Origin: Syntrophaceae bacterium
GTDB taxonomy: Bacteria; Desulfobacterota; Syntrophia; Syntrophales; UBA2185
Reading direction: 5' to 3'
Length of the DNA stretch: 64,000 bases
Assembly: GCA_003142295.1 (NCBI GenBank)
Contig: PLLV01000135.1
Location: forward strand, 3,795-67,794
In this document: piece after piece, positions 2,859-62,574 of the stretch
Position numbering within the stretch: position 1 is the first letter of the stretch
Layout: each line of letters starts with the position of its first letter
The notes under the pieces: model-generated
The model's input: only the letters and a program-made list of their open reading frames with translations
The model's database searches: none
What the model was told of the DNA's origin: nothing
Position numbers and translations under genes: made by a program

Positions 2859-3086
2859 TTTGAGTCGAGTATACCGGTGGTTTCTCCAGATACTACAGGT
2901 TGTGGTTTGTTTTTTCCGATAACCACCTTGTTTAGCGACGGTGCCACAATATGTCATCCATGTATACATTGGCCCCAAACCTTCACATAGCTGCCCATAC
3001 ATATCATAATTCTCGATGAAACAGCACTAATGATGACGGGTTGAAAACCTGCATATTCATCGAGATTGACGATTTGTGGATAACAG
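2859..3086 (-). promoter_or_regulatory. Copy E of the recurrent promoter/leader cassette (upstream of the radical SAM gene)
   Basis: Minus-strand reading: CTGTTATCCACAAATCGTCAA...TCGATGA, hairpin GGTT/AACC, ATCATT, TTAGTG-16 nt-TATGAT. There is also a leader segment at 2859-2898 shared with copy A. Confidence 0.5.
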
Positions 3087-3300
3087 TCAATAAAGATTAC
3101 TGTTTGAAAGGCTGGATCTCCGTCAGAATTGCCGTATGCTTTGTTACAGAAAGTTATGAGGACTCTCGTTAACCCAGGATGACTCACGCTAAGATTAAGA
3201 CGAGAATGCAAAATTGCCGATGGAAGCACTAAACTAAGTGCTAAGTGGCGGCGCGTAGAGACTGCGGTCAAAACCGAACCGCATGGTTACGCCGCCTGCA

Positions 3301-4494
3301 TCAGTGCCGGGCCATAAGGTGCTGAACCGCCTTTTCCAGGCCGTCCAAAGTCAGTTCGAACATGGGAAAGACCTGGTGGATCATGCCGACAGTAAAGGTG
3401 TGGCGCCAGTCAAGCTCAGGCTGGGGATTGAGCCATACGGAATGGCGAAAGATATTGGCGAGATATTTCAGACGCTCCAGGCCGGTTCCGACCTCCACCT
3501 GGTCGATGTATATCGCCCCGTTCGTGTGGATCAGCTCATAGGGGGCCATACTCGCATCGCCAACGATGATCAGCCGCGTCTCCGGATCCTTGCGGATAAA
3601 CTCTTCAATAGGCTCCGGTTTGTAGCGTCGTTGCGGGTCCTGCCAGACACGGCTGTAAATGGTGTTATGGAAGAAGTAGATTTTCAAATCCTTGAACTGG
3701 CTCCGGGCATAATGGAACAGGGTCTGCACGACTTCGACATAGGGGTCCATGGACCAGCCGCCGTTGTCGATCATGAGGATGATTTTGAGACGGTCCGATA
3801 ACCGACGGTCGAAGATGATCTCGATTTCTCCGGCGTTGCGCATTGTCTCATAGATGGTCTCATCCACATTTACCAGATCTTTTGGACCGGAGGGAATCAT
3901 CCGGCGCAGCCGCTTCAAGGCCTCGCCCATCTGCACCTCTGTCAGGGGGCCTTCCTGGGAATAATCCTTATATCGCCTTTCCATGGCCACTTTGACGGCC
4001 GATTTGTTTCGGGACTGCCCGCCCACGCGCATCCCGCCTGGATGATAGCCTGAATGTCCGACCGGTGAGGTGCCTCCCGTGCCGATCCATCGGTTTCCCC
4101 CGTGATGGGCTTCCGTCTGATCCTTAAGCCGGTCAAGAAAATATTGGATAAGCTCTTCGGGCGTCATCTTTTTCAGTTTTGATTCGTCCAGACCAAGGGC
4201 CTCAGCGATTTGCTCCGGGTTCTTCAGCCATTCTTCCAGTAGCGCCTTCACGATCTCCGTGAGCTCGATCTCTTCCGGCGCCCGCAGGGCAATGCCGCGG
4301 AAGAAATGCGCGAAGACCTGATCATACATATCGAAATAACGCTCGCTCTTTACGAGGATTGCACGGGCGGTCGTGTAAAAATCATCGACGGACTGGATAA
4401 TGCCAAGGCTCAAAGCCTTCTGCAGCCGCAAAAAAGACGTGGGCGACATGGGAAGCCCCCGCTCACGCAGCTTATAAAAGAATTCGATAAACAA
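3301..4494 (-). CDS. VWA-domain protein, CoxE-like (partner of the MoxR ATPase)
   Basis: 397 aa, immediately downstream of the MoxR-type AAA gene with a 12-nt gap. The C-terminal half has a VWA-like MIDAS context (LMIDNGGWSMDP, IIVGDASMAP). Confidence 0.7.
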   Translation of the reverse strand: MFIEFFYKLRERGLPMSPTSFLRLQKALSLGIIQSVDDFYTTARAILVKSERYFDMYDQVFAHFFRGIALRAPEEIELTEIVKALLEEWLKNPEQIAEALGLDESKLKKMTPEELIQYFLDRLKDQTEAHHGGNRWIGTGGTSPVGHSGYHPGGMRVGGQSRNKSAVKVAMERRYKDYSQEGPLTEVQMGEALKRLRRMIPSGPKDLVNVDETIYETMRNAGEIEIIFDRRLSDRLKIILMIDNGGWSMDPYVEVVQTLFHYARSQFKDLKIYFFHNTIYSRVWQDPQRRYKPEPIEEFIRKDPETRLIIVGDASMAPYELIHTNGAIYIDQVEVGTGLERLKYLANIFRHSVWLNPQPELDWRHTFTVGMIHQVFPMFELTLDGLEKAVQHLMARH

Positions 4495-4506
4495 ATCCGG
4501 TTCCTC

Positions 4507-5355
4507 TCAGCGCATCCTCGCCGCCTGCTGGGCGGCAGCAGCCAGATCAGCGCTCTTCTTGAAAAGGATGCCCAAATAGGGCGTGTTTCCCCGGGTGAGC
4601 GATTTCAAATGCATATCGGGGTCCGTCTTCAAGGCGCGAATCCAGTTGATCAGTTCCCGCGTGGCCGGCTTCTTTTCGATCCCCTTGAAATCCCTCAGGC
4701 GGTAGAAGGCCTCGATGCACGCCTCGGAGAGATCCCTGCTGAGATTGGGGAAATGAACACCCACAATGAGCCGCATCGTCCCGACATCGGGAAAGGCGAT
4801 GTGATGAAAATTGCAGCGGCCCAAAAAGGGATCGGAGAGGTCCTTCTTCGCGTTGGATGTAATGATGATCACCGGCCGGTGGCGCGCCGTAACGGTCTTG
4901 TCAATTTCTATGATATCGAACTGCATCTGGTCGAGAACGTCGAGCATGTCGTCCTGAAAATCGCTGTCGGCCTTGTCGATCTCGTCGATTAGCAGCACCG
5001 TCCGCAGGTCCGATACAAAGGCCTGGCCGATTTTCCCCATCCGGATGTATTCCTCGATATTGCTGACATCCCGCTTGGAATCCCCGAAGCGGCTGTCGTT
5101 CAGGCGCGTCAGTGTATCGTATTGATACAGGGCGTCCACAAGCTTCATGCTGGACTTCACGTTCAGCACGATCAGGGGCATCTTCAGGCTTTCGGCAATG
5201 GCGTGGGCGAGCATTGTCTTGCCCGTGCCCGGCTCGCCCTTGAGCAGGAGCGGCATTTCCAGGGCTATGGAGACATTCACAACCTTTGCCAACTCGTCAT
5301 CGAGAATGTATTTGGACCCGCCGCGAAAAGAATTGCTATCTGTGCTCATACACAA
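4507..5355 (-). CDS. MoxR-family AAA+ ATPase (CoxD-like)
   Basis: 282 aa with Walker A GEPGTGKT and Walker B LLIDEIDKA. Size and neighbourhood are typical of MoxR/VWA pairs. Confidence 0.85.
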   Translation of the reverse strand: MCMSTDSNSFRGGSKYILDDELAKVVNVSIALEMPLLLKGEPGTGKTMLAHAIAESLKMPLIVLNVKSSMKLVDALYQYDTLTRLNDSRFGDSKRDVSNIEEYIRMGKIGQAFVSDLRTVLLIDEIDKADSDFQDDMLDVLDQMQFDIIEIDKTVTARHRPVIIITSNAKKDLSDPFLGRCNFHHIAFPDVGTMRLIVGVHFPNLSRDLSEACIEAFYRLRDFKGIEKKPATRELINWIRALKTDPDMHLKSLTRGNTPYLGILFKKSADLAAAAQQAARMR

Positions 5356-5483
5356 ACTCCTTTTATAACTACGACGTTAAACGCCGGATATTTTTTGAAT
5401 CATGCCTTCCTATTTCATCTGTGGAAAAATTACCAGCTTTTTTTCATTAGACACGGTCAATAATGCCTTCATATCTGACCAAA

Positions 5484-6224
5484 TTACCGAAGAGACCTGA
5501 GGATTGCATCCTTTGTCTTTTCCATAGCGGAGAGCTTGACTTCCATGGTCATTGTTGACTCGTAGCCCTTCTCCTTAAGAAGGGTAAATATCCGCCGGTA
5601 GTCCACGGCGCCATCTCCGAGGGGCAGATGGAAGTCATCCTTTGGTGAAGTGCCGCCGCGGTTGTCATGAACATGAACATGCTCTATCCAGGGGAAACAG
5701 TTTTCGATGAAGCCGAAAGATGTGTTCTCCCTGGACAGAAGCTGACCGTGGCCTATGTCCAAAGTCATTTTCAAGTCGGGAACGTTATGAAACATAGGCA
5801 TAAAATTATAATAACGCTCACTGAGATTCTCGATGCATAAAATGACGCCCGCGTTCCTGGCAGAAGCGACCATCTCCGACGCCAACTCGATCTTTCGGGA
5901 GGCCGCTTCGTGCGAAACATACCTTTCGTCCATCCAGAAATGGAATGTTCCCTTCGTGATGCCAAGCGCTCCCGACAGGTCGAAGAGTCTCTTCATGCGG
6001 AGAACAAATCGCTCCTCAAGAATCTTTGCATCAAAGGCGTCATCTTCATTTGGATAATGGGCAATATAGGTGATACCATAAAGGGTCTTCAGTCTTAAGA
6101 GTTCGTCAAGCTCACGCTCGACATCTTCCGGGACATAAAGCGAAATCTCGGCAAAAGGATATCCGAGTTTTCCAACTTCGTGAATCTGTTCTATCGAGTG
6201 AGCTCTCCCGCCGATGATGAACAT
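5484..6224 (-). CDS. Sugar phosphate isomerase/epimerase (xylose-isomerase-like TIM barrel)
   Basis: 246 aa. It carries the metal-ligand style motifs IENL...DIGH...HVHVHDN...H.PLGDG characteristic of the AP_endonuc_2 family. Confidence 0.7.
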   Translation of the reverse strand: MFIIGGRAHSIEQIHEVGKLGYPFAEISLYVPEDVERELDELLRLKTLYGITYIAHYPNEDDAFDAKILEERFVLRMKRLFDLSGALGITKGTFHFWMDERYVSHEAASRKIELASEMVASARNAGVILCIENLSERYYNFMPMFHNVPDLKMTLDIGHGQLLSRENTSFGFIENCFPWIEHVHVHDNRGGTSPKDDFHLPLGDGAVDYRRIFTLLKEKGYESTMTMEVKLSAMEKTKDAILRSLR

Positions 6225-7584: not shown

Positions 7585-7683
7585 TGTCATTCCCGCCCCC
7601 GCGCGGAGCCTGCCCTCGAATGTCTTTATCGGGGGGCGGGAATCCGACCACCCCCTGTCATTCCCGCGCAGGCGGGAATCCAG
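7585..7683. repeat. REP family 1 (cattcccgc..gcgggaatcc stem-loops), two units
   Basis: The long unit at 7585-7647 is an inverted copy of the element at 19526-19582 (gagcctgccctcgaatgtc core). The short unit is tgtcattcccgcgcaggcgggaatccag at 7656-7683. Confidence 0.8.
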
Positions 7684-8503: not shown

Positions 8504-8650
8504 GCCATTCCCGCATTTCATACTGTCATTCCCGCGGAGGCGGGAATCCAGAATATCTTACTTACCCCTCGTCTCTTGCTCCTTGCATCTTTCACTTTGT
8601 CATTTCGACCCCTTCGTTTACTCAAGGTAAACTCCGGGAGAAATCTTGCT
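8504..8650. repeat. REP family 1 unit plus REP family 2 unit (gtcatttcgacccctt...)
   Basis: tgtcattcccgcggaggcgggaatccag (family 1). tgtcatttcgaccccttcgtttactcaaggtaaactccgggagaaatc (family 2, also seen at 36003-36130 and 14008-14050). Confidence 0.75.
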
Positions 8651-13591: not shown

Positions 13592-13741
13592 TTTGAGTCG
13601 AGGATGCCAGTATCTCTCGATACTATAGTTTGACGTTGATTTGTATTGTCCATAACATAATTATCGAGGAAATAAAATCAATGATAACGGATTGTAATCC
13701 CGTATCCTCGTCGAGGAGGACTATTTGTGGCCAACAGGAAG
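13592..13741 (-). promoter_or_regulatory. Copy A of the recurrent promoter/leader cassette (upstream of the zinc-ribbon/Mrr locus)
   Basis: Minus-strand reading: CTTCCTGTTGGCCACAAATAGTC..CTCGACGAGGAT, hairpin GGATT/AATCC, ATCATTGATT, TTGATT-16 nt-TATGTT. The leader TTTGAGTCGAG..GATACTATAG at 13592-13628 is shared with copy E. Confidence 0.55.
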
Positions 13742-13842
13742 AAATAATCCGCATTTTTTATTTTCTTTTCGAACTCTATAATTCAAGATAATTGCCGCAT
13801 TTTTCATCCTTATCATTGTGCTATTCAGGTATTGGTAAGAGG

Positions 13843-14220
13843 ACTGGTTTCCCGATCAGGTCGGGAATGACGGCGGGAAGGTTTACGTCTTAAAAAGAGA
13901 CTGGATTCCCGCTTGCGCGGGAATGACAGTGAAGACACGGGAATGATAAAATCGAGGAAAGCAGCGCAGTGTACACAACACCTTGCGTCAGTTTTTTCTT
14001 GATAAGATTTCTCCCTTCGGTCGAAATGACATGGGGGGATTGTCGAAATGATAAGGAGGGGTGATTCAACTGACAATGGTGAATGTGTGTTGTTGAAAAT
14101 AGAGACTGGCTTCCCGATCAGAGCCCGGAATGACAGAAAATTAAGTCTGATACGGTAAAGATCAAAAACTGGATTCCCGCCTGCGCGGGAATGACATTAG
14201 AGATAAGGGAATGAAAGAGG
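13843..14220. repeat. Array of about 8 REP units (families 1 and 2, mixed orientation)
   Basis: ggtttcccgatcaggtcgggaatgac, ggattcccgcttgcgcgggaatgac, ttctcccttcggtcgaaatgac, gtcgaaatgat, ggcttcccgatcagagcccggaatgac, ggattcccgcctgcgcgggaatgac. Confidence 0.8.
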
Positions 14221-14239
14221 AGAGGGGGAAATGGAGAAG

Positions 14240-19525: not shown

Positions 19526-19582
19526 TGTCATTCCCGACCCCCGATAAGGACATTCGAGGGCAGGCTCTGATCGGGAATCCAG
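19526..19582. repeat. REP family 1, long unit
   Basis: tgtcattcccgacccccgataaggacattcgagggcaggctctgatcgggaatccag, an inverted copy of 7585-7647. Confidence 0.8.
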
Positions 19583-47248: not shown

Positions 47249-48304
47249 TTGATTGTAAAGGTCAACAGCAGCGCCGTTGTCGGTGTAGATTCGTATCCAG
47301 TCGATGTGGAAGTAGATATATCACCGGGACTTCCTCAATTTTTAACGGTGGGACTTCCTGATGTCGCAGTCAAGGAAAGCAAAGACAGAATCAAGGCAGC
47401 CATAAAAAATTCCGGCTACAAATTCCCCAAGAACCACGTTACCGTAAATCTCGCACCTGCCGACATTAAAAAAGAAGGAACCGGTTTCGATCTTCCCATT
47501 GCAGTAGGCATTTTGACAGGCGAAGGCTGTATTGAGTTAAAGGACACCCTCGATTACATGCTCATCGGAGAACTGTCCTTGGACGGAAGCATCAAGGGGG
47601 TTGATGGAGTCCTTTCCGCGGCCCTTCTGGCAAAGGAAATGGGGAAGAGGGGCATCATCGTGGCAAGGGAAAACGCCAACGAAGCCGCCATGGTGGAAGC
47701 TGTCGAAGTGATTCCTGTTGATACCCTTTCCGACGTCGTTGAATTTCTTAACGGCAGGAAGAAAATAATACCGCTAACGCTTGATATAGCTGATCTATTC
47801 AATAAGAGCTGCAATTATCCCTTCGATTTCAGCGAGATCCGCGGTCAGGAGCACGCAAAAAGGGCATTGGAAGTTGCCGCAGCGGGGGGTCATAATATAA
47901 TAATGATAGGTCCGCCGGGTTCAGGAAAGACGATGCTGGCACAGAGGCTCCCTACCATACTTCCCGGCCTTACTTTTCCTGAGGCAATTGATATTACGAA
48001 GATATTTTCTGTGACGGGACTGCTCAACAAGAGAGAGACTATTTTAGGGACAAGACCGTTTCGAGCTCCCCACCATACAATTTCAGATGCCGGACTCGTG
48101 GGGGGAGGACACACTCCCAGACCGGGAGAGATCAGCCTCGCCCATCACGGCGTCTTGTTCCTCGATGAGCTGCCGGAATTCAAGAGAAATGTCCTTGAGG
48201 CATTGAGACAACCTTTGGAGGATGGACATGTCACGATCACGAGGTCTTCCATTACTGCCACATATCCGGCAAGATTTATGCTTGTGGCGGCCATGAACCC
48301 CTGA
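47249..48304 (+). pseudogene. comM: comM/yifB (Mg-chelatase-like AAA+ competence protein), 3'-truncated by insertion
   Basis: 351 aa with a Lon-protease-like N-domain ([18 protein letters not shown]) and AAA+ Walker [10 protein letters not shown]. It ends at ...[13 protein letters not shown], whereas the family normally continues CPCG... for about 150 more residues. Confidence 0.75.
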
Positions 48305-49784
48305 AGCCGCGTTGCCCAGATGTCGTCAATTCGGAAGACGAAGGGAGGTAGCAGAGGTTGATGGTCACGTCTTCAGTACCTACAATAATTTTCTCAGTGA
48401 TGTTCTCCATGATTTTTCTCTTTTCATTATCAGTGAATTCGGGCCAGCGGGAATAAAGGTCTTTTGCTTGATTGAGGATCTGATCGCTTGAAAGGTACTG
48501 AATCTTCAAGAAATCAATCTCTCCTTGGAGTTCGGGAAGCTGATCCTCCATTTGTTGACGTCTCTCCTCCAAAGGCTTATATAAGCTTCCGAAGGTTTTG
48601 GAGTCTATAGTGTCATCAATGTAAGACCTGTATACCTTCTCCATCTCCCGCTCAATCTTCCGTTTCTCCTCTGTTAGGGCTTGCAAGAGATCCTCTTTTT
48701 CTTTAATTACATGATCGGCTTTGTTCAAGTAGCCGGTAATCTCGGATGATGAGAAGAAGAATGTCTTGAGCTGGTGATGGAAAATCTCTTCCAAATCGGC
48801 TGTGCCGATCTTGTTACGGCACTTGTAGCAGGTGTACTTGGGGGAATTGGAAGGTACATACATCTTGTTATCGCAACCACAAAAAACAAAACCGGTAAAG
48901 AGGTGGACGGCCTTGCGGCTCGGCCTTTTATTTTTCTTTTCCTGTTCGTCCAGAATATAGTTGCACGCCTCCCAAAGCTCCTGCGAAACAATAGGCTCCA
49001 CTTGACTGAGGACCCATTCTTCTTTAGGCTTTAAGACCCATTTCTTGTTTTCTCCGAGGCTTCTGGTATAGTTTGCTCGATAAATTCCTTTGGCTGTTGA
49101 GTCTCTTAAAAGTCTCTCGATAGTCGTATCGGAGAATTTCGCCCCTTTCCGGGTGCGATAGCCCTTTTCGTTGAGAAGTCGCGCTACTGTCTTTTTCCTG
49201 CGATGCTCCAAGAAAAGCTCATAGATCAACTTTCTTATCGGTGCTTCGGTCGGGTTGGGAATCAGCTTTCTATCGACCCATTGGTAACCTAAAGAGGCAT
49301 GACCGCCGAGGGGTTTACCGAGCTTAGCCCTTATAGGAACGGAGGCGGCAACCCTTTCGGAGATTTCTTCCCTCTCCCACTGGGCCATTGCGGCGATCAT
49401 GGTATAGAAGAGCCGTCCAGCAGGGGTTGAGGTATCAATCGATTCCTGAAGAGAGATCAGATCGGCGTTGTTTTCCCGGAATATATCGGCGAATTCCAGG
49501 AGTTCCCTGGTGTTTCTGGCCAATCGGGCAAGCTTCGAGAAGACAAGGCCGGTGATACGGCCACTTCTCACATCCTGGAGCATTCTTTGTGTTTCAGGAA
49601 GGTTGATAACAGACTTTCCGCTTATAGCCTCAAGATGGTAAACCTCTTTGATCTGCCAGCTTTTAGACTCGGCATAATAGCGGGCTCGTTTCTCATGGTG
49701 TTCCGGGCTCTCGCCTCTGGCTTGGTCTTCGGTGGAAACACGTATCCAGATGCCTACAGCTTTCGATTCGTTCTTTACCATCAT
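48276..49784 (-). CDS. Large serine recombinase (resolvase N-domain + recombinase domain + zinc ribbon + coiled coil)
   Basis: 502 aa. [13 protein letters not shown] holds the catalytic Ser, RLARN.REL is the resolvase core, and [21 protein letters not shown] is the zinc ribbon. The last 9 codons are antisense to comM codons. Confidence 0.9.
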
Positions 49785-49975: not shown

Positions 49976-50401
49976 TTAATCGAACATCTCCTTGACGACC
50001 CAGTAAAGAAAATCACTGGGACTCATGATTCGCGTCTTGTCATAATGGGCCATAGGGAAATGCTTCCTGTTGCCCGTTATGAGGTAGTGGGCCTTAGCCT
50101 CCAATGCGCATTCCAAGAATTTATTGTCTTCAGGATCGATCTTGATAACATTGATCCGCGTTGATGGTGATACCCAAGAAGATTTCCGCTTAATGGATAG
50201 CAAAGCTTTTCTGACGTTTGCCTGATCCAGGCTTTGAAATTTCTCCCGTGACAAAACGCCTTTGTATTCGGCAAAAATCTCCTCGGTCACGCACAGTTGG
50301 ATGTGGCCTTCCAAGACGAGAGACAGTACCAGCGCCGGGGCGCTGCCCTCTTTAAGCAGAGCCGAGATGATGACGTTGGTGTCGAGGACTACCCTGATCA
50401 C
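49976..50401 (-). CDS. PIN-domain toxin (TIGR00305-like)
   Basis: 141 aa. VVLDTNVIISAL... carries the first acidic residue, followed by ...LITGNRKHF. The gene overlaps the antitoxin gene by 4 nt. Confidence 0.8.
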   Translation of the reverse strand: MIRVVLDTNVIISALLKEGSAPALVLSLVLEGHIQLCVTEEIFAEYKGVLSREKFQSLDQANVRKALLSIKRKSSWVSPSTRINVIKIDPEDNKFLECALEAKAHYLITGNRKHFPMAHYDKTRIMSPSDFLYWVVKEMFD

Positions 50402-50694
50402 TTGGCCCTGCCTCCTTTCTTTCTGGTTTTCCGAAAGGCTTTGATTTCCGCTTCAATCTCGGTATCGCGCAGACGGTCAAGACCCGCTTCCTTTGCGCTG
50501 ATCTGGATCTTGGTCATCAGCTTGGGCTGCTTAACGATGTTTTTGAGATAATCCTTGACACCGAGAATCACCACCTTGGGTTTGCCTCGGCGACTGACCA
50601 AAAAGCGGACGTTTTTCTTTTCCGCCTCATTCATAATTCTGCCAAATTGAGTCCTGGCAGATAGGGCGTTGATTAAAGTTGTCATTGGTTGCAC
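50398..50694 (-). CDS. Phd/YefM-type antitoxin
   Basis: 98 aa. ALSARTQFGRIMNEAEKKNVRFLVSRRGKPKVVILGVKDY fits a Phd/YefM N-domain and the gene lies upstream of the PIN gene. Confidence 0.75.
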   Translation of the reverse strand: MQPMTTLINALSARTQFGRIMNEAEKKNVRFLVSRRGKPKVVILGVKDYLKNIVKQPKLMTKIQISAKEAGLDRLRDTEIEAEIKAFRKTRKKGGRAK

Positions 50695-50869: not shown

Positions 50870-51853
50870 CTAAGCATCCCAATTTCTCAGTTGTTCTCCT
50901 GGCAGCGCGATCACCTTCCCGCCGATTCTTTCCATCTCCAGGCTGTTCTCCCAGCTTTTTTCGCTCTGGGCGGCCCTTGTAACGGCGTTGGCGATGCCGT
51001 ACTGGTCGGCCTCCGGCTCCGCCCCGAAGGCCATGAGGATGTTCGCCTTCTGGTCTTCGCTGAGGCGGTAGTGCTCCACCACGTTGCTGATCACCCGCTG
51101 GGGATTTCTGACCTTGATCTCCGTCGATTCCCGGAGCGCCTGAACGATCTCACCGAACCTGCCGAAAAGCTCCCTGATCGACCGCCGTATGGAGAGATAG
51201 ACCGTCTCGTCAAATCCGTTATCGCCGTTTCCGAGATGGATCTGCCGCGCGGCGAATTCCTCCATGACCATGCCGTTGGTGCACTGGACCCGGAACGTCC
51301 GGGGCTCGATCCTCAGCGCGCGATGCCCGGTCTCGGAATTGACCAAGAGCAATCCTCCGGTGATCAGATCGTCTTTATGCCTGACGAAATCCCGGAGCCT
51401 GTCGCTTTTCACCTTGAGGTTCATTTCCGTCTCGGAAAGATAGCAGCCTTCCACCTCCGCCTCGTGGGCCTGGAGTTCGTTCAACGAGCAGTAGAGTACG
51501 TCCAGGTGATCGATGATCCGGTATCTCTCGCTGAGAAATGCCCGGACGGAATCGCCGAGGCCCCGAATGAAGACGTCTTTGGATGAACGCTTGAACCATG
51601 TATTCACGTTCTCGATCAGAAGCTCCGGCGCTTCGTTCTCCATCTTTGAATAATATCTCACCGGGATCTCCAACCGCTCGGCAATCTGATTGTGGCAGGG
51701 CCGGGTGATTGAAAAATGGTTATCGTTCCCATTCAAGTGAAGTCTCGTGCGACTTTCATTCAGGATCATCTCCAATCGAGATGATTCGATCTTTTGATCC
51801 CACTTGAGCGGCTTTTGCCTTTCCAGCTCTTCCATTAGCTCTTGCAGTTTCAT
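50870..51853 (-). CDS. DUF932-like protein (phage/plasmid-associated)
   Basis: 327 aa. The overall pattern (...RAFLSERYRIIDH...LLLVNSETGHRALRIEPRTFRVQCTNGMV...) matches my recollection of the DUF932/TIGR03299 family found on integrative elements. Confidence 0.55.
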   Translation of the reverse strand: MKLQELMEELERQKPLKWDQKIESSRLEMILNESRTRLHLNGNDNHFSITRPCHNQIAERLEIPVRYYSKMENEAPELLIENVNTWFKRSSKDVFIRGLGDSVRAFLSERYRIIDHLDVLYCSLNELQAHEAEVEGCYLSETEMNLKVKSDRLRDFVRHKDDLITGGLLLVNSETGHRALRIEPRTFRVQCTNGMVMEEFAARQIHLGNGDNGFDETVYLSIRRSIRELFGRFGEIVQALRESTEIKVRNPQRVISNVVEHYRLSEDQKANILMAFGAEPEADQYGIANAVTRAAQSEKSWENSLEMERIGGKVIALPGEQLRNWDA

Positions 51854-52234: not shown

Positions 52235-52256
52235 ATGCCCCTCCTTTTTTGTCCCT

Positions 52257-52433
52257 TCAGTCTATAGGGACCTTCTGGTTAAGGTTATTCCAGCTGGTTC
52301 TTCTGATTTTAATCCCTCCGCACTTTTTGCTGTTTTTGTGACAGCACTTCCGACAGTGCTCCAAGCCCCATACTTGTACGTTCCAGCATTCGGAACTCAG
52401 GTTTTTGGAATGAATGATCCTTGTCTTCATCAT
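52257..52433 (-). CDS. Cys-rich micro-protein (58 aa; below the ORF-track cutoff)
   Basis: Hand translation gives MMKTRIIHSKNLSSECWNVQVWGLEHCRKCCHKNSKKCGGIKIRRTSWNNLNQKVPID, with AAGGAG 6 nt upstream. Confidence 0.4.
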   Translation of the reverse strand: MMKTRIIHSKNLSSECWNVQVWGLEHCRKCCHKNSKKCGGIKIRRTSWNNLNQKVPID

Positions 52434-52442
52434 TGCTCCTTT

Positions 52443-52607
52443 TCACAAATAGCAGTTGTGGCAGATCACTTGGCCGTCTGCCAAGAACACAGCGGTATTC
52501 GACAGTGGATGAAACGGCGTCCATCGATGACCGCAATCAAGCAAAAACTTCTTGCCTTTCAACAAGCGCAAAAAAAAGCTGTGCGCCTCATAAACTACTT
52601 CTTTCAT
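52443..52607 (-). CDS. Zinc-ribbon-like micro-protein (54 aa; below the ORF-track cutoff)
   Basis: Hand translation gives MKEVVYEAHSFFLRLLKGKKFLLDCGHRWTPFHPLSNTAVFLADGQVICHNCYL (CxH...CxxC), with AAGGGGGT upstream. Confidence 0.4.
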   Translation of the reverse strand: MKEVVYEAHSFFLRLLKGKKFLLDCGHRWTPFHPLSNTAVFLADGQVICHNCYL

Positions 52608-52995
52608 TTTCTCTTACCCCCTTTCTTTTGGATTTTAAATGTGCTGATTGATCCAGCATACTTCTGGTATCTTCAGCATACGGGGGGTTGAATAAATGAT
52701 AAGAAGGGTGATTTTGCCAGTCCAGGCAATGCCTCGAAATATTGTGAAAAGAATGGGCCTATTTCTGAGACGGAAAGAGAGAATGGATTGGGTGAGGATT
52801 TAAAGACGCAACAAAGATTGGCTGCCTATGGCGGATTTGACCTCACGGTCAATATCAAATCGGGTTCTGAATGGGATTCTTGGCTTCACCTACAACTGTT
52901 TGGTGGTATGCTTTCATCATGACCGATGATTACGGATCGAAAGAGCGTAACGTATAAATCAGCCGACGACAAAGGAGGTCGGTTGGGTTTTTTTG

Positions 52996-54207
52996 TTAGA
53001 TAGCCCCCAGAATCAACTTTGACCATTCGGGATGCCCGTTGTATATCAAATGTCGAATGATTCTCTCTGCGAGACAAGAATATTCTTTAAATCTATTTCT
53101 CACTCTGTCTATTTTTATCCCATTATTCTTACAAAGAGAACCACTGTGCGCTACTTGACACCTATATTTATAGATGTCTCTAAGCTGACAATAGATGATG
53201 TGTCGATCATCACCATCTTTCCCGATAAGCCAACTGCCACGAAGACGGAAAGACTGTGAGAGTTGATCGTTGTTCACGTTGTCGTCGAGAAGCGCCATTT
53301 CTAATGCGATACCCAGATCAAGAATCTTATCTTCTATTTGATCCCGTCGCTTCGCTTGAGATAGGCGAGACAAAGCTCTAGTCATTCTTGGCTTATCATC
53401 AAGTGGCAATGCACCAAAGGCATCCACAAGGCTATGAATTTCACTTACGCTATCTTCAGAAAGTTTCAATGACCTGCGGCCAATAATGTCATATATTGGT
53501 GAGCCACCCCCCGACCCACCAAACATGCCTATTGGCATATCTGATAAAGCATATGATGTTGAATAATAGGGGATGCACGAAACACCATCAATAGCATTAA
53601 GCAAAAGAGCGATCTCACTCAAACGCTGAGACGAATTCCAGAACTCTTCGTCCCTCATCTTCATCTGTTGAAAAGTTTCATCTCCTTTAACAGCCTTAGT
53701 TGTTTGGCATGTGCAGGTAATTGCTGCTTTAGGTTTGGGTGTTGGCTGCGGGAAATATTGAACGTCACGCTTCAGATAGTGCTGCTTATCCCGAGAATTA
53801 GGCATTTTGTGAACAGATTCAATCCGATATTCATTTCCTAAATCGAGCGTTCTTTCTACCTCTATTCCAAGCACCCACAAGGTATTTATTACTGAAACTT
53901 TATCTGAGTCTAGGAAAGTGTTTAGATTTTCTTCCGCAATATCTTGCCCATATTCGTGAATCGCCCATAAGAACCACATTGCGAGAGTCTTAATTTCGAA
54001 TCTAGTGGCATTGTTCCCATTAGAAATCATGTAGCCATCTAAAGCTTGAACTCTCGGATCTTCTCCGAGTGCTGCCAGCACTTGGGTGCCTACCTCTTCA
54101 TTTTCAATTAGTCTTGAATAACCTAAATAGAGTTGAGTTAGCCTGTCATCGACAGAAGCAACTTCGTCTATCTCTGGTCTTGGTATTTGAAGACGCCCTA
54201 TTTCCAT
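52996..54207 (-). CDS. HEPN-domain protein (Apea-like architecture), putative RNase toxin
   Basis: 403 aa. The C-terminal helical domain carries LRDIYKYRCQVAHSG (Rx4H, the Y..R...AHG style seen in HEPN families). The roughly 270-aa N-terminal domain is of unknown type. The gene is AT-rich. Confidence 0.6.
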   Translation of the reverse strand: MEIGRLQIPRPEIDEVASVDDRLTQLYLGYSRLIENEEVGTQVLAALGEDPRVQALDGYMISNGNNATRFEIKTLAMWFLWAIHEYGQDIAEENLNTFLDSDKVSVINTLWVLGIEVERTLDLGNEYRIESVHKMPNSRDKQHYLKRDVQYFPQPTPKPKAAITCTCQTTKAVKGDETFQQMKMRDEEFWNSSQRLSEIALLLNAIDGVSCIPYYSTSYALSDMPIGMFGGSGGGSPIYDIIGRRSLKLSEDSVSEIHSLVDAFGALPLDDKPRMTRALSRLSQAKRRDQIEDKILDLGIALEMALLDDNVNNDQLSQSFRLRGSWLIGKDGDDRHIIYCQLRDIYKYRCQVAHSGSLCKNNGIKIDRVRNRFKEYSCLAERIIRHLIYNGHPEWSKLILGAI

Positions 54208-54283
54208 TATTCACCATTTAACATGGAGCTAAGCGGCTGACAAAGTTGCACAGCGGATTTGTCTGTCCGACTTGAGCTGTAGG

Positions 54284-54973
54284 TTATGATTCTTCCTCAA
54301 TTGGATTTTTAATGAAATCTAAAAATAACTTACCAATTTCCGTTGTGCGATGGCTAATAACGCCACTATCCGATCTTTGAGTAGTAATAAGTGATCTTGA
54401 AGATAAATCCTTCCAAATGAAATCGAAGAAGCCTTTTTCTCTCAATTCGGAAAATTCGCTTCCGAGAGGGTCAATTCTGCTTATACAATTGTCAGCAGAA
54501 TTTCCCTTTTGCGTCTCACTATATGTTACTTGAACCTTGAAATATTCAATTGTTTTTAAATGCCAAACAGACAAAGTATCTATAAAAGACAAGAATAATT
54601 GTTGGAGAGATTCTTCCGGTGGATTAGGTAGTGCTGAATTTAGAATTGCACTTTTTAATGCCTCACGTTTTTCACGATTAATTGTTTTTATTGCAATCCG
54701 GGTAGCTTCTATTGCCGTGTCGATGAATCCATCGTTTTCCTGAAGCGATTCAAGCACTACTCCCATTTTTTCTTCAAGAGTTCCAAGTCCCATTCCAATC
54801 TCTTCCATCCATTGATTGCGTCTTTTCTCAAGAGATGGTGTAACGATTAACTTCAATAATTCTCCTGCAGCCGCACCAGCATAAGGAATGGCTCCTAGGC
54901 CAGCACGCGTCATTGCATGAATAACATCGCCAGCATCGAGCTCAGGTGGTTTGTATTTTTCTGACTTATTCAT
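54284..54973 (-). CDS. Hypothetical protein (229 aa), upstream partner of the HEPN gene
   Basis: Same strand, with a 76-nt gap to the HEPN gene and promoter cassette copy B upstream. It is helical and has no catalytic motif I recognise. Confidence 0.55.
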   Translation of the reverse strand: MNKSEKYKPPELDAGDVIHAMTRAGLGAIPYAGAAAGELLKLIVTPSLEKRRNQWMEEIGMGLGTLEEKMGVVLESLQENDGFIDTAIEATRIAIKTINREKREALKSAILNSALPNPPEESLQQLFLSFIDTLSVWHLKTIEYFKVQVTYSETQKGNSADNCISRIDPLGSEFSELREKGFFDFIWKDLSSRSLITTQRSDSGVISHRTTEIGKLFLDFIKNPIEEES

Positions 54974-55076
54974 TTTTCACTAAAACAATTAATACGGAAT
55001 GAGATATTGTTTTACCATCTGGAGGACGCTACTATATTAATAAAGCTTAAAAACGAACAATTCTTACGTACCTGCA

Positions 55077-55166
55077 ATATCATAATTTTGAAGAAATTAA
55101 CATCAATGATAACTGATTGAAATCCTGAATCTTCGTCGATCCAGTAGTTTTACTGACTTCAGGAAG
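55077..55166 (-). promoter_or_regulatory. Copy B of the recurrent promoter cassette (upstream of the 229-aa/HEPN pair)
   Basis: Minus-strand reading: CTTCCTGAAG...TCGACGAAGAT, hairpin, ATCATTGATG, TTGATG-16 nt-TATGAT. Confidence 0.55.
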
Positions 55167-55189
55167 ATGTTAATAAAATGAACCCATTC

Positions 55190-60674: not shown

Positions 60675-60960
60675 CCGTTCCTCCAGCCTTTCCAGCCACG
60701 CTTTCCCATATCCTCCTTTGCCTGCTGCATCATATTAGTAGTATATATAAGTTTTTGCTACGGTAGGCGACCCAAAAGCGTGGCGCCCCATTCTGTCTCC
60801 GGCTTCTGTCCGTATTTTACCACAAATATGTCAAATTATCGTAACGGATTCTTAGCAAAATCCTTTGCAGAATACCCCGCGGCTTGCCGCATGAAGCTTC
60901 GCTGTTAAAATTTAACAGCCCAATAGGGATTTTGCTGTGACGGGCGACACCAAACGTAGC

Positions 60961-61045
60961 ATTTTAAAATAAATTTTCACATAAATGATTCCGGTTTTCA
61001 AACCCGCATCTTCGTTGATGTTGACGATTTGTGGATAACAGGAAG
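60961..61045 (-). promoter_or_regulatory. Copy D of the recurrent cassette (about 300 nt upstream of the PAS-LuxR gene)
   Basis: Minus-strand reading: CTTCCTGTTATCCACAAATCGTCAACATCAACGAAGAT, hairpin GGTTT/AAACC, ATCATTTATG. The 21-nt block TTGACGATTTGTGGATAACAG is identical to copy E. The -10 is less clear. Confidence 0.45.
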
Positions 61046-61281
61046 ACAGTTATTTTTGTCTTGTGCGGAAAAATAAACGGTTCAGGCTTGTAAGTTTCAA
61101 CTCGCATTCAATGATATCGTCTGGTGGTCTCGCTTCCTGCTTTGTATTTGCAATTGATAGAGCGTGATAAGTAAAAATGAAATGTGCCGGTAATTGGTGT
61201 CACATACTTATCAATGATTTTTATATTGGAATTGGAGTAATGATTACCATTTGTAATCAGTTTTAGAGTAACATTACTGTA

Positions 61282-62304
61282 TCAACGACAGCGTCCCTCG
61301 CCTTTAGCGATGTCTAACGCTTTGCATTTTCCCAACTCACACGCCTTTTGAGCATCATGGCAGCCCAGCTTGTTGTTGCCCTGAAGAAAATAAGCAATCC
61401 CCCTGTTGCTGTAGGCTTCGGCTAAATCAGGTTGTAAGCGGATAGCTTCATTATAATCTTCGATGGCTCGCTGATACTGGTCAAGTTTACCGTATGCATT
61501 CCCTCTGTTGTAGTATGCCATGTAATCTTTCGTCTGTAGGCGGATAGCTTTATTATAGTCTTCTATGGCACGCTGATACTGGCCAAGGCGAGTGTAAATA
61601 GCACCCCTGTTGCAGTAAGCCTCGGCATAATCCGGCTTCAGGTGGATGACTTCATTAAAGTCTTCGATGGCCCGCTGATGCTGGCCAAGGCCATAGTAAA
61701 CAACCCCTCGGTTGTAATAGGCCTCGGCATAATCCGGTTTCAAGCGGATTGCTTCATTAAAGACTTCAATGGCGCGTTGATACTGGCCGAGGTCATAGTA
61801 GGCCTTACCCCGGTTTTTATAGGCCTCAGCCAAGTCCGTCTTTAGGCGATTGGCTTCATTATAATCTGCGATTGCGCGCTGCTTTTGTCCAAGCTTATCG
61901 TAAGCATATCCCCGGTTGATGTAGGCATTGGCATAATTCGGTTTCAGCCGGATAGCTTCATTATAGTCCTCAATGGCACGTTGATACTGCCCAAGGGCAG
62001 CGTAAGTATATCCCCGGTTGCTATAGGCCATGGCATCATTCGGTTTCAGCCGGATGACCTGATTATAGTCTTCAATGGCACGTTGATATTGGCCGAGGTT
62101 AAAGTAACCATTCCCCCGGTTGCCGTAGGCGTCGGCATAATCTGGTTGCAGTTTAATGGCATTGTTCAAATATTCGATAGCCTTTTCTGGATCGTTATAT
62201 TTTAATTCGTCAGCCTTATTAAACCATTCGACTGCCGTTTCACACATTGCCGGGGTACAAAGAAATGTTAAAACAAGAAAGATGGGAAAAATAATTTTGC
62301 GCAT
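61282..62304 (-). CDS. Secreted TPR-repeat protein (9 near-identical 34-aa repeats)
   Basis: 340 aa with a signal peptide. The unit QYQRAIEDYNEAIRLKPDYAEAY.NRG occurs 9 times, followed by a Cys-rich C-terminus (CHDAQKACELGKC...GRC). Confidence 0.85.
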   Translation of the reverse strand: MRKIIFPIFLVLTFLCTPAMCETAVEWFNKADELKYNDPEKAIEYLNNAIKLQPDYADAYGNRGNGYFNLGQYQRAIEDYNQVIRLKPNDAMAYSNRGYTYAALGQYQRAIEDYNEAIRLKPNYANAYINRGYAYDKLGQKQRAIADYNEANRLKTDLAEAYKNRGKAYYDLGQYQRAIEVFNEAIRLKPDYAEAYYNRGVVYYGLGQHQRAIEDFNEVIHLKPDYAEAYCNRGAIYTRLGQYQRAIEDYNKAIRLQTKDYMAYYNRGNAYGKLDQYQRAIEDYNEAIRLQPDLAEAYSNRGIAYFLQGNNKLGCHDAQKACELGKCKALDIAKGEGRCR

Positions 62305-62327: not shown

Positions 62328-62421
62328 ATTATCATCATAGTTATCGAGAAAATAATATTAATGATTACTAGTCGACGTCCGGCATTTTCGTCGAGACTGG
62401 ATGGTTGAGTAGTTCAGGAAG
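62328..62421 (-). promoter_or_regulatory. Copy C of the recurrent promoter cassette (upstream of the TPR gene)
   Basis: Minus-strand reading: CTTCCTGAAC...TCTCGACGAAAAT...ATCATTAATA, TTAATA-16 nt-TATGAT. The -10 lies 30 nt upstream of the ATG at 62304. Confidence 0.55.
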
Positions 62422-62574
62422 GTAGTTGTAGAGGTCGCCTGTTTCATTTACCTACAAATCCACGGAATTGATGATTGGAGAAAGCTGATGATTCCCAGTT
62501 GTAAAGACTAATATTCATCCCTCCGTGTTCCCCTCCACAACTAGGTTATATCTCAAATGGAAAAATAGCCGGTA

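Follow-up and report, generated by a model that had tools for sequence, protein, structure and literature searches.

We find that two co-oriented genes in a Desulfobacterota genome (Syntrophaceae bacterium) are probably two independent single-gene accessory modules that came to lie side by side by chance, as cargo of an island that targets comM. The analysed stretch of DNA, hereafter the window, is 64,000 nucleotides long. Both genes are uncharacterised and probably defensive: the downstream one encodes a 403-aa protein that would act as a self-contained ApeA-like HEPN ribonuclease, and the other encodes a 229-aa protein that may be a separate Abi-alpha-like single-gene module, not an antitoxin or immunity factor of the HEPN protein. 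An earlier, sequence-only reading of the locus had instead proposed a toxin-immunity or two-gene abortive-infection (Abi) pair.

Two AT-rich genes on a comM-targeting island

Both open reading frames match the sequence exactly as first described, in coordinates, common orientation and 76-nt gap, and the two peptides quoted from them, LRDIYKYRCQVAHSG and GAIPYAGAAAGELLKLIVTPSLEKRRNQWMEEIG, are both present (Table 1). Their reported AT-richness also holds, with GC contents of 41.8% (403-aa gene) and 38.0% (229-aa gene) vs. 47.3% for the window. The genes lie to the right of comM, which is itself interrupted by a serine-recombinase island: the comM fragment terminates in ...AAMNP* and the recombinase gene abuts it, and together these two features (47249-49784) are the left end of the island. 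A motif search of all six frames of the 64-kb window did not find the 3' part of comM, so the far island boundary is not placed. The proposed mobile-island setting beside a PIN/Phd pair is borne out by the recombinase gene abutting comM and by Pfam matches at 49976-50694.

The pair had further been credited with its own promoter cassette and with a hairpin directly after the second stop codon. The cassette is a real repeat, present in the window as six aligned copies of ~90 nt, each 5' of a minus-strand gene, and the copy upstream of the 229-aa gene carries sigma-70-like boxes (TTGATG-16-TATGAT, 55106-55079); its promoter role is less secure, as promoter-like matches in the region are no commoner than in shuffles (8 vs. 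6.8). The hairpin exists but is weak (-8 kcal/mol, z = -1.26, with 21 of 200 shuffles equally stable), lacks a T-tract and drew no call in a terminator scan, and it is unconvincing as a terminator. Within the spacer between the two genes, scans for terminators and promoters returned zero matches, and its predicted fold was no more stable than shuffles.

Table 1 Features of the locus, in window coordinates
Feature	Position	Strand	Basis or remark
comM 5' fragment	47249-48304	+	Pfam Mg_chelatase/ChlI matches
Large serine recombinase gene	48276-49784	-	Pfam Resolvase/Recombinase matches
PIN toxin	49976-50401	-	Pfam match
Phd/YefM antitoxin	50398-50694	-	Pfam match
DUF932 protein	50870-51853	-	Pfam match
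Weak hairpin	52960-52985	-	3' of the 403-aa stop codon
403-aa gene	52996-54207	-	ORF; C-terminal HEPN domain; large uncharacterised family, proteins of ~400 aa
C-terminal HEPN domain, aa 251-403	52999-53457	-	All-helical in AF2 model
Codons R349-C-Q-V-A-H354, Rx4H signature, presumed catalytic	53146-53163	-	Read from sequence
N-terminal domain, aa 1-250	53458-54207	-	Helices and beta-sheet region (DSSP of AF2 model)
Spacer, 76 nt	54208-54283	-	Holds the 403-aa gene's ribosome-binding site
229-aa gene	54284-54973	-	ORF; uncharacterised widespread family, possibly a distant relative of Abi_alpha
Promoter-like repeat cassette, ~90 nt	55077-55166	-	Repeat family; 5' of the 229-aa gene

An ApeA-related HEPN domain in the 403-aa family

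A homolog search with the 403-aa protein returned 265 homologs, and an exhaustive search returned 5511, 1690 and 296 representatives at E<=1e-3, E<=1e-10 and E<=1e-30, respectively. Clustered at 50% identity, the family makes up hundreds of groups from many phyla; it was not found in IMG/VR. Scans of the protein against Pfam, PADLOC and NCBIfam returned no model at threshold. In its AF2 model (pLDDT 89.7), the C-terminal domain comprises helices 251-265, 272-287, 291-306, 316-328, 332-355 and 363-390, the fifth of which is predicted to hold the Rx4H motif. The sequence-only reading had taken an Rx4-6H motif as a HEPN signature. Three such motifs occur in the protein vs. 1.7 expected by chance, a count that by itself is not beyond chance, and the weight of the motif comes from its conservation: R349 and H354, along with Y346 and R281, never vary among the 91 relatives compared (26-51% identity), E303 is kept in 89, and the other two motifs are unconserved among the same sequences.

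Searching PDB with the profile of the 403 family gave ApeA (9hxj) as the best match (E 0.0049) and the sole one below E 0.1, in two collinear stretches that align Rx4H on Rx4H, with the family motif lying on ApeA's R-N-x-I-V-H. The HEPN domain of ApeA is split by an insertion of ~85-100 aa, whereas the corresponding blocks of the 403-aa protein are contiguous. When the C-terminal 160 aa were compared by hhalign with an ApeA HEPN profile of 19 sequences from which this insertion had been removed, the probability was 93-95% (E 4e-7 to 7e-8) with the two Rx4H motifs superimposed, a value that depends on a deletion chosen after viewing the HMMER alignment; either block alone gave 59-69%, and a reversed-sequence control gave 0.4%. 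The ApeA sequences had been gathered by back-translating a 69-aa Ec3ApeA fragment and searching E. coli genomes with the result by blastn; the fragment itself as query gave zero matches in the plasmid collection or the homolog index, and a single ApeA protein as query found no genome loci. Additionally, RefSeq gives the name 'HEPN domain-containing protein' to distant plasmid-borne relatives that align over the full length, and one of them matches the 403 family with an hhalign probability of 99.9%. Collectively, these comparisons support the HEPN assignment made for the C-terminal domain in the sequence-only reading, with ApeA's HEPN as nearest known relative.

No curated model tested recovered this relationship at threshold. 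The matches to Pfam HEPN_Apea and ApeA_NTD1 that had been expected for the 403-aa protein were not obtained: neither these nor any PADLOC model matched it at E<=1, none matched its relatives in sets of 90 and 91 sequences, and no Pfam HEPN-clan model scored above its curated threshold in the protein or in these relatives. Below threshold, HEPN_RiboL-PSP appeared in 2/90 and 2/91 relatives (best E 0.0077) and HEPN_MAE_28990 in 1/91; the 403-aa protein itself showed neither. A Foldseek search of the whole two-domain model against PDB returned nothing at E<0.7 and no HEPN structure. Matches of the C-terminal profile to ABL SH2 (E about 0.03) were rejected as spurious, having disappeared with a more diverse profile, and a PF26019 tag that had been precomputed for a few homologs was not reproduced by hmmscan, nor did we find a mention of it in the literature.

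The N-terminal ~250 aa are presumed to be a sensor or regulatory part. In this domain W78 is invariant and a GPFGGSGGG loop (aa 227-235) is conserved, and, as had been stated from the sequence, it matches nothing recognisable: no relatives were detected in Pfam, PADLOC, NCBIfam or, by Foldseek, PDB.

ApeA is a single-protein anti-phage system whose HEPN domain is an anticodon nuclease (PDB 9hxj, 9hxd; bioRxiv 10.64898/2026.01.26.701840). Like ApeA, the 403-aa protein is encoded by a stand-alone gene found in mobile and defence contexts, has a large non-catalytic N-terminal part, and ends in a HEPN domain with the signature IY..R....H.G whose core is homologous by profile comparison. This single gene, with relatives near restriction-modification, toxin-antitoxin (TA), retron and Abi genes and on a conjugative plasmid, has an ApeA-like organisation. 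The proteins differ in that the 403-aa protein is ~190 aa shorter (403 vs. about 590 aa) and in that its residues 1-250 reach an hhalign probability of only 1% against ApeA residues 1-318 (N-terminal and Mid). DARNA (PD-T7-3), another single-protein HEPN defence, acts in abortive infection by tRNA cleavage (bioRxiv 10.64898/2026.02.22.705581) and likewise joins a HEPN domain and a sensor domain in one polypeptide, but its HEPN lies at the N-terminus and is followed by a Pds5-like C-terminal domain, and no sequence similarity to the 403-aa protein was found.

By analogy with other HEPN enzymes, the domain carrying R349-x4-H354 would dimerise to form a composite RNase site, and the family-specific N-terminal ~250 aa would probably sense a signal or gate this site. 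Upon attack by phage or foreign DNA, the 403-aa protein may then cleave cellular RNA, with tRNA anticodon loops as a possible target (precedents being ApeA, DARNA and PrrC), and arrest growth in an abortive-infection outcome. Should the family prove to act as a defence RNase, it would add a large branch to the single-protein HEPN defences like ApeA, one that the Pfam, PADLOC and NCBIfam libraries searched here do not detect, and its different, compact sensor domain would make it a candidate for recognising a novel infection signal.

The 229-aa family and its possible distant likeness to Abi-alpha

The 229-aa protein has 161 homologs in our homolog search, with family members of 224-272 aa. Its predicted layout begins with a segment rich in Gly and Ala, continues with a helical core and ends in a winged-helix-like region; the AF2 model has a pLDDT of 79.8, and its fold matches to winged helices are weak and not significant (E 0.3-1). 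The protein itself returned no model at threshold in Pfam, PADLOC or NCBIfam, and Foldseek searches of the whole model against PDB and BFVD gave no significant match. As the sequence-only reading had held, the protein is not an MNT antitoxin: a nucleotidyltransferase match is absent, and among its relatives an NTase-conflict appears in 1 of 76, at a chance-level E of 0.071. Two further ideas were rejected, namely FAS death-domain matches to the family profile (E 0.25-0.3), which are insignificant and clash with the predicted strand-containing fold, and a transmembrane N-terminus, for which the 19-residue Kyte-Doolittle mean peaks at 1.36 and E and K occur in the segment.

Known systems offer one tentative relative. 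Abi-alpha (Pfam Abi_alpha PF14337, formerly DUF4393), with about 210-270 aa, is a single-gene Abi system of prophage 6 of E. faecalis V583 (PMC6356687), and Belisama (DUF2806) is a related system on an integron cassette (bioRxiv 10.1101/2024.07.02.601686). The 229-aa family resembles these in size (~230-270 aa), in its mostly helical make-up and in being carried singly by a prophage, by plasmids and by an integron cassette, with solo occurrences on a Vibrio integron cassette, as a Pseudomonas prophage moron beside a recombinase and on a B. cereus plasmid; the family is also present on 2 IMG/VR contigs. Abi_alpha is matched by 5 of 76 family members (best E 7.1e-5), but the 229-aa protein itself has no Abi_alpha match at E<=1, and DUF6616, of unknown function, is matched more often (20 of 76). 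Bacillus homologs in phage and plasmid collections provided no link from the family to an annotated Abi-alpha protein. These matches weakly suggest that the 229-aa family is a distant relative of Abi_alpha, in which case it would extend a poorly understood group far outside Firmicutes. Neither this outcome nor an active defence RNase in the 403-aa family would overturn current views.

Partners or chance neighbours

Surveyed across genomes, the two families almost never co-occur, which comes close to the outcome that the sequence-only reading had named as refuting it. A 229-aa gene lies within 10 kb of the 403-family gene in 1 of 36 genomes, the latter being solitary in the other 35, and a 403-aa gene lies near the 229-family gene in 1 of 58 genomes, on the identical contig. 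The partner is missing even beside close homologs: 403-aa homologs at 91%, 88% and 78% identity adjoin, respectively, a retron-like STM3845 and RT pair, an AlbA_2 protein with BrnT/A, and an unknown gene, and a 75% identical 229-aa homolog is preceded by GmrSD with no HEPN gene after it. At the nucleotide level, homology with 403-only loci begins at 54237, 54225 or 54217 and homology with one 229-only locus stops at 54230, in each case inside the spacer, and the mobile unit of the 403-aa gene runs from ~20-30 nt 5' of its ATG through the stop codon. Judged by these breakpoints, the spacer is a seam joining two gene-sized units that move separately, and an obligate two-gene system is not supported by the comparison.

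One rival is a lineage-specific two-gene system, in which a co-transcribed 229-aa protein regulates, senses for or neutralises the HEPN protein (as toxin-immunity or two-component Abi). A 2.25-kb block comprising the cassette, both genes and the spacer recurs at locus L038 with 83% nucleotide identity, and the pair was judged, by contigs of matching length, to be present in metagenomic relatives as well (P0004/P0126, P0006/P0128). In the window and at L038 the two genes are probably co-transcribed, since they share orientation, lack an intervening terminator and have a spacer that is ~87% conserved. The arrangement also recalls HepT/MntA (HEPN-MNT, type VII TA), in which a HEPN Rx4H RNase likewise has an adjacent upstream gene; here, however, the upstream protein lacks a nucleotidyltransferase signature, the HEPN protein exceeds HepT threefold in size, and the two genes do not co-occur. 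Against such a system stand the single shared adjacency, nearest homologs of each gene that exist without the other, the breakpoints within the spacer, and the solitary life of both families, including on an integron cassette and as a prophage moron, and we consider it quite unlikely. Note additionally that co-oriented, closely spaced gene pairs in defence islands may, as this case cautions, be two independent systems.

The 229-aa family might alternatively be a shared upstream regulator or adaptor with interchangeable downstream effectors, of which the 403-aa HEPN protein is one. Approximately 14 of 58 loci have an effector-like same-strand gene 0-118 nt downstream, and downstream genes include TIR_2, Cap4_nuclease with SAVED, NYN, PIN, DUF5677, several Rx4H proteins, two DUF6932 nucleotidyltransferases and SLFN_AlbA_2 at 55 nt, with a second SLFN_AlbA_2 (L078) at 179 nt; a winged-helix-like C-terminus is also predicted. 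Upstream neighbours, however, likewise resemble effectors (ThsB_TIR twice, SNase, MauJ, Rx4H proteins), so a defence-island neighbourhood fits better than an ordered operon. There is no conserved neighbour family, the 229-aa gene is solitary in its integron cassette, prophage and plasmids, 403-family genes almost never have it nearby, and the winged-helix matches are insignificant, making this arrangement unlikely. A broader version, to which we give a similarly small chance, is that the 229-aa family is an unrecognised, widespread front-end, with a conserved Gly/Ala-rich N-terminus, a helical core and a more variable winged-helix-like C-terminus, for swappable effectors encoded just downstream that could be HEPN, TIR, NYN, PIN, Cap4-SAVED or Schlafen-like, so that the window could be one instance of a modular two-gene architecture, and that, separately, the 403-aa family is a new, large class of compact sensor-RNases that resemble ApeA and bind their ligand through a domain of a new type.

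TA toxins are numerous among HEPN proteins (10.64898/2026.02.22.705581), and the 403-aa protein could be one that is countered by the product of an unannotated small ORF, by an RNA or by a gene located elsewhere; some homologs do have small genes beside them, such as DUF4926 and DUF433 (L095) or a 113-aa ORF (L097). Yet flanking genes are not conserved across loci, the gene moves alone, an Rfam search of the whole window gave zero RNA matches, and the protein is 3x the size of a minimal HepT, with a large N-terminal domain of its own like self-regulated ApeA, and a TA toxin is accordingly very unlikely. Most improbable of all is the absence of any conflict function, with both genes ordinary hypothetical cargo and Rx4H not a nuclease site. 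Curated family matches are absent, and at one locus of the 403 family (L096) the surrounding genes are housekeeping ones, with defence genes absent. Rx4H is nonetheless unchanged in 91 divergent sequences, in a domain homologous to an already proven antiviral HEPN nuclease, and both families are patchy, cross-phylum and carried on islands, plasmids, prophage and integron cassettes. Both lie near genes of restriction-modification, TA, retron and Abi systems; 403-family genes occur with type I restriction-modification and MazE/PIN at one locus, with an AAA_15/21 ATPase, DUF4238 and RT at another, and elsewhere with putAbiC on a conjugative plasmid.

Two genes on a comM-integrated island

The two AT-rich genes that the sequence-only reading had proposed as an abortive-infection or toxin-immunity pair are indeed present, 76 nt apart, with GC contents of 38.0% (229-aa gene) and 41.8% (403-aa gene) vs. 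47.3% for the window. The "promoter cassette" described 5' of the 229-aa gene is a genuine repeated element of ~90 nt with six copies in the window, the copy at this gene including a sigma-70-like match; the hairpin after the 403-aa stop codon exists but is weak, not rising above shuffled sequence (z = -1.26). The island's recombinase gene is followed by a PIN/Phd pair and then a DUF932 gene. No frame of the window contains the 3' part of comM: either the island, whose far boundary was not found, extends beyond 64 kb, or the comM 3' part was lost. The 403-aa gene is separated from the DUF932 operon by ~740 nt (52250-52990) that contain short overlapping ORFs only, with no Rfam match.

Features of the window, with coordinates
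Feature	Position	Strand	Remark
comM, truncated at ...AAMNP	47249-48304	+	left of the gene pair
Large serine recombinase gene	48276-49784	-	first gene of the island that cuts comM
403-aa ORF	52996-54207	-	
229-aa ORF	54284-54973	-	
~90-nt cassette copies	3000-3163, 13651-13751, 55076-55176, 60955-61055, 62331-62431		ranges given for the six copies
REP-like palindromic repeats	7598-7643, 8521-8566, 13900-13957, 14154-14225, 19530-19575	both orientations	

Because no terminator or promoter match was found between the 229-aa and 403-aa genes, and because the spacer is ~87% conserved with a pair-bearing contig of another Syntrophaceae genome (L038), the two genes are probably co-transcribed in this genome. 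As a two-gene system, the proposal is not supported by comparative sequence data on four independent counts (two censuses, the closest relatives and nucleotide homology), and the pairing is a local arrangement rather than a conserved system. In a census of the 403-aa family with one genome per species, a 229-family gene lay within 10 kb in 1 of 36 loci (Syntrophaceae MAG L002, 81% identity), with upstream DNA too short for judgement in about four; the corresponding 229-family census found a 403-family gene in 1 of 58 loci, L038, which is the same contig as L002. The closest homologs of either gene occur without the other: upstream of the 91%, 88% and 78% identical 403-aa homologs are, respectively, a retron-like STM3845 and reverse transcriptase pair, an AlbA_2 protein with a BrnT/BrnA pair, and an unknown 384-aa gene, while the 75% identical 229-aa homolog sits after GmrSD, with no 403-family protein encoded in the 436 nt past it. 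At the nucleotide level, 403-only loci are homologous to the window from 54237, 54225 or 54217 to 52990, 52984 or 52929 (92-94% identity for two of them), a 229-only locus matches across 54988-54230, and the pair-bearing locus matches across 55173-52929; the limits of the single-gene loci thus make the 76-nt spacer the seam of two separately moving gene-sized units. What remains are two uncharacterised, widely distributed single-gene families, probably defensive: a compact HEPN variant that is ApeA-like and has a new N-terminal domain (403 aa) and a remote Abi-alpha relative (229 aa).

The 403-aa family and its HEPN domain

No Pfam, PADLOC or NCBIfam model matched the 403-aa protein. An indexed search returned 265 homologs, and an exhaustive search yielded, as representatives of 50%-identity clusters, 5511 at E <= 1e-3, 1690 at 1e-10 and 296 at 1e-30, with the family present in Desulfobacterota, Nitrospirota, Cyanobacteria, Actinomycetota, Chloroflexota, Planctomycetota, Acidobacteriota, Saccharibacteria, Bacteroidota and several Pseudomonadota classes. 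Across 91 relatives (26-51% identity), the sole invariant residues are W78, R281, Y346, R349 and H354, with D297 and E303 near-invariant; the protein has three Rx4-6H strings vs. 1.7 expected by chance, and R349-x4-H354 is the only conserved one. Its AlphaFold2 model (pLDDT 89.7) comprises a mixed alpha/beta N-terminal domain (aa 1-250), bearing W78 and a conserved GPFGGSGGG loop, and an all-helical region (aa 251-403), and Foldseek of the whole model against the PDB returned nothing significant.

On four lines of evidence we conclude that the C-terminal domain is, as suggested earlier, HEPN, its nearest characterised relative being the HEPN core of ApeA, a single-protein HEPN anticodon nuclease of anti-phage defence (bioRxiv 10.64898/2026.01.26.701840). 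ApeA ranks first in profile searches of PDB sequences, at E 0.024 with the family's C-terminal profile and E 0.0049 with a diverse full-length profile (nothing else < 0.1), and aligns over two collinear stretches that place the family's YRSQVAHSG over ApeA's YRTRNNIVHSG. For hhalign, a back-translated aligned fragment led us to ApeA genes in P2-like prophage hotspots of E. coli, and 19 relatives from other genomes were added to the profile. The two conserved blocks separately gave probabilities of 59% (E 9e-5) and 20% (E 1e-3), and the Rx4H block alone gave 69% upon deleting the first block. With ApeA's ~85-aa insertion between the blocks removed, one alignment spans 130 columns at 93-95% probability (E 4e-7 to 7e-8), a favourable figure since the deletion was picked after the HMMER alignment was seen; controls gave 0.4% (reversed query) and 25-69% (equal-sized deletions at other positions). 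In agreement, three distant relatives detected on plasmids by tblastn have the RefSeq name "HEPN domain-containing protein". One of them, a 422-aa protein encoded beside putAbiC on a conjugative plasmid of Cupriavidus, aligns full-length with the family at 99.9% hhalign probability. In addition, a few relatives show sub-threshold Pfam matches to HEPN_RiboL-PSP and HEPN_MAE_28990.

Although the HEPN cores are homologous, ApeA's N-terminal and Mid domains show no similarity to the N-terminal 250 aa of the 403-aa protein (probability 1%), which is also ~190 aa shorter and lacks ApeA's HEPN insertion. We therefore place it outside the ApeA family as currently defined, and conclude by analogy that it would work like ApeA. 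The best-supported account, which we hold to be reasonably probable, is a self-contained sensor-RNase: by likeness to other HEPN enzymes, the R349/H354 active site would arise from pairing of HEPN domains, the N-terminal domain particular to this family would hold the protein off until an infection cue, and RNA cleavage would bring about growth arrest, with tRNA anticodon loops as a candidate target by precedent of ApeA, DARNA and PrrC. The domain layout, the invariant motif, the HEPN-core homology to ApeA, the solitary mobile distribution and the spacer seam are observations; catalysis, substrate, trigger and phenotype are inferred.

In other genomes, 403-family genes lie near a type I restriction-modification system accompanied by MazE/PIN and DUF433, near a reverse transcriptase, DUF4238 and an AAA_15/AAA_21 ATPase, next to putAbiC (on a conjugative plasmid) and next to a retron-like pair; one locus has nothing but housekeeping genes around it. 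A search of IMG/VR viral contigs returned no member of the family. Such a distribution is that of a single-gene module, for defence or addiction, that is cellular and moves horizontally. The STM3845-family and RVT_1 reverse transcriptase genes of L109, the locus of the 91% identical homolog, occupy 3888-5937, 63 nt 5' of that homolog. Separately, within a P2-like prophage hotspot of E. coli EC416, the Ec3ApeA-like gene (L117, 1551-3304) is annotated as ORFs of 195 and 372 aa, while strain SC516 carries the related gene (L118) as a single 583-aa ORF; a frameshift or an annotation error may account for the split.

The 229-aa family

None of the 161 homologs of the 229-aa protein carries a Pfam domain. 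Its model (pLDDT 79.8) has four parts: a low-confidence, moderately hydrophobic Gly/Ala-rich N-terminus, which does not clearly form a membrane helix; a long helix; a helical bundle; and a helix-helix-helix-strand-strand-helix C-terminus with weak winged-helix fold matches (E 0.3-1). When 76 members were each scanned against Pfam, 5 matched Abi_alpha (best E 7.1e-5) and 20 matched DUF6616 (best E 7.6e-4). Members occur as one cassette of a Vibrio europaeus integron-like array, as a moron in a Pseudomonas phage, adjoining its recombinase in opposite orientation, on plasmids of Bacillus cereus, Planktothrix and Hymenobacter, and on two IMG/VR contigs. The prophage and integron-cassette settings match those of Abi-alpha, an E. 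faecalis abortive-infection protein encoded by a single prophage gene and causing premature lysis (PMC6356687), and of Belisama, an Abi-alpha-like DUF2806 cassette and anti-phage system of Vibrio integrons (bioRxiv 10.1101/2024.07.02.601686). The Vibrio array (L107, 1-8582) is punctuated by DUF3265 mini-ORFs and contains a RelE/Phd pair.

Across 58 genomes, conflict genes often border 229-family genes on both sides (TIR_2, Cap4_nuclease with SAVED, NYN, PIN, SLFN_AlbA_2 and DUF6932 downstream; ThsB_TIR, SNase and MauJ upstream), and no conserved partner was found among these neighbours. Such surroundings could suggest a modular "front-end" working with a variable effector, which we regard as improbable; the simplest reading is a stand-alone, Abi-alpha-like module resident in defence islands. 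In individual loci, a Cap4_nuclease and SAVED protein begins 7 nt past the 229-family gene (L051, 10682-12136), and a HEPN_RiboL-PSP-like gene and a Ribonuc_L-PSP gene, part of a hypothetical-gene block, lie just 5' of it (L098, 5451-7421).

Repeats elsewhere in the window

Every cassette copy (6/6) sits 5' of a minus-strand gene, and the copies, which flank the comM junction on both sides, terminate in ...ATAATTATGATAT, with a perfect DnaA-box-like TTATCCACA in those at 3029 and 60984. A tandem 102-nt periodicity at 61391-62200 (six overlapping 300-nt copies, 69-74% identical) falls within a 340-aa ORF (61282-62304), implying a protein of 34-residue repeats. GC-rich palindromes (ATTCCCGC...GCGGGAAT) recur at scattered sites, as REP elements do.
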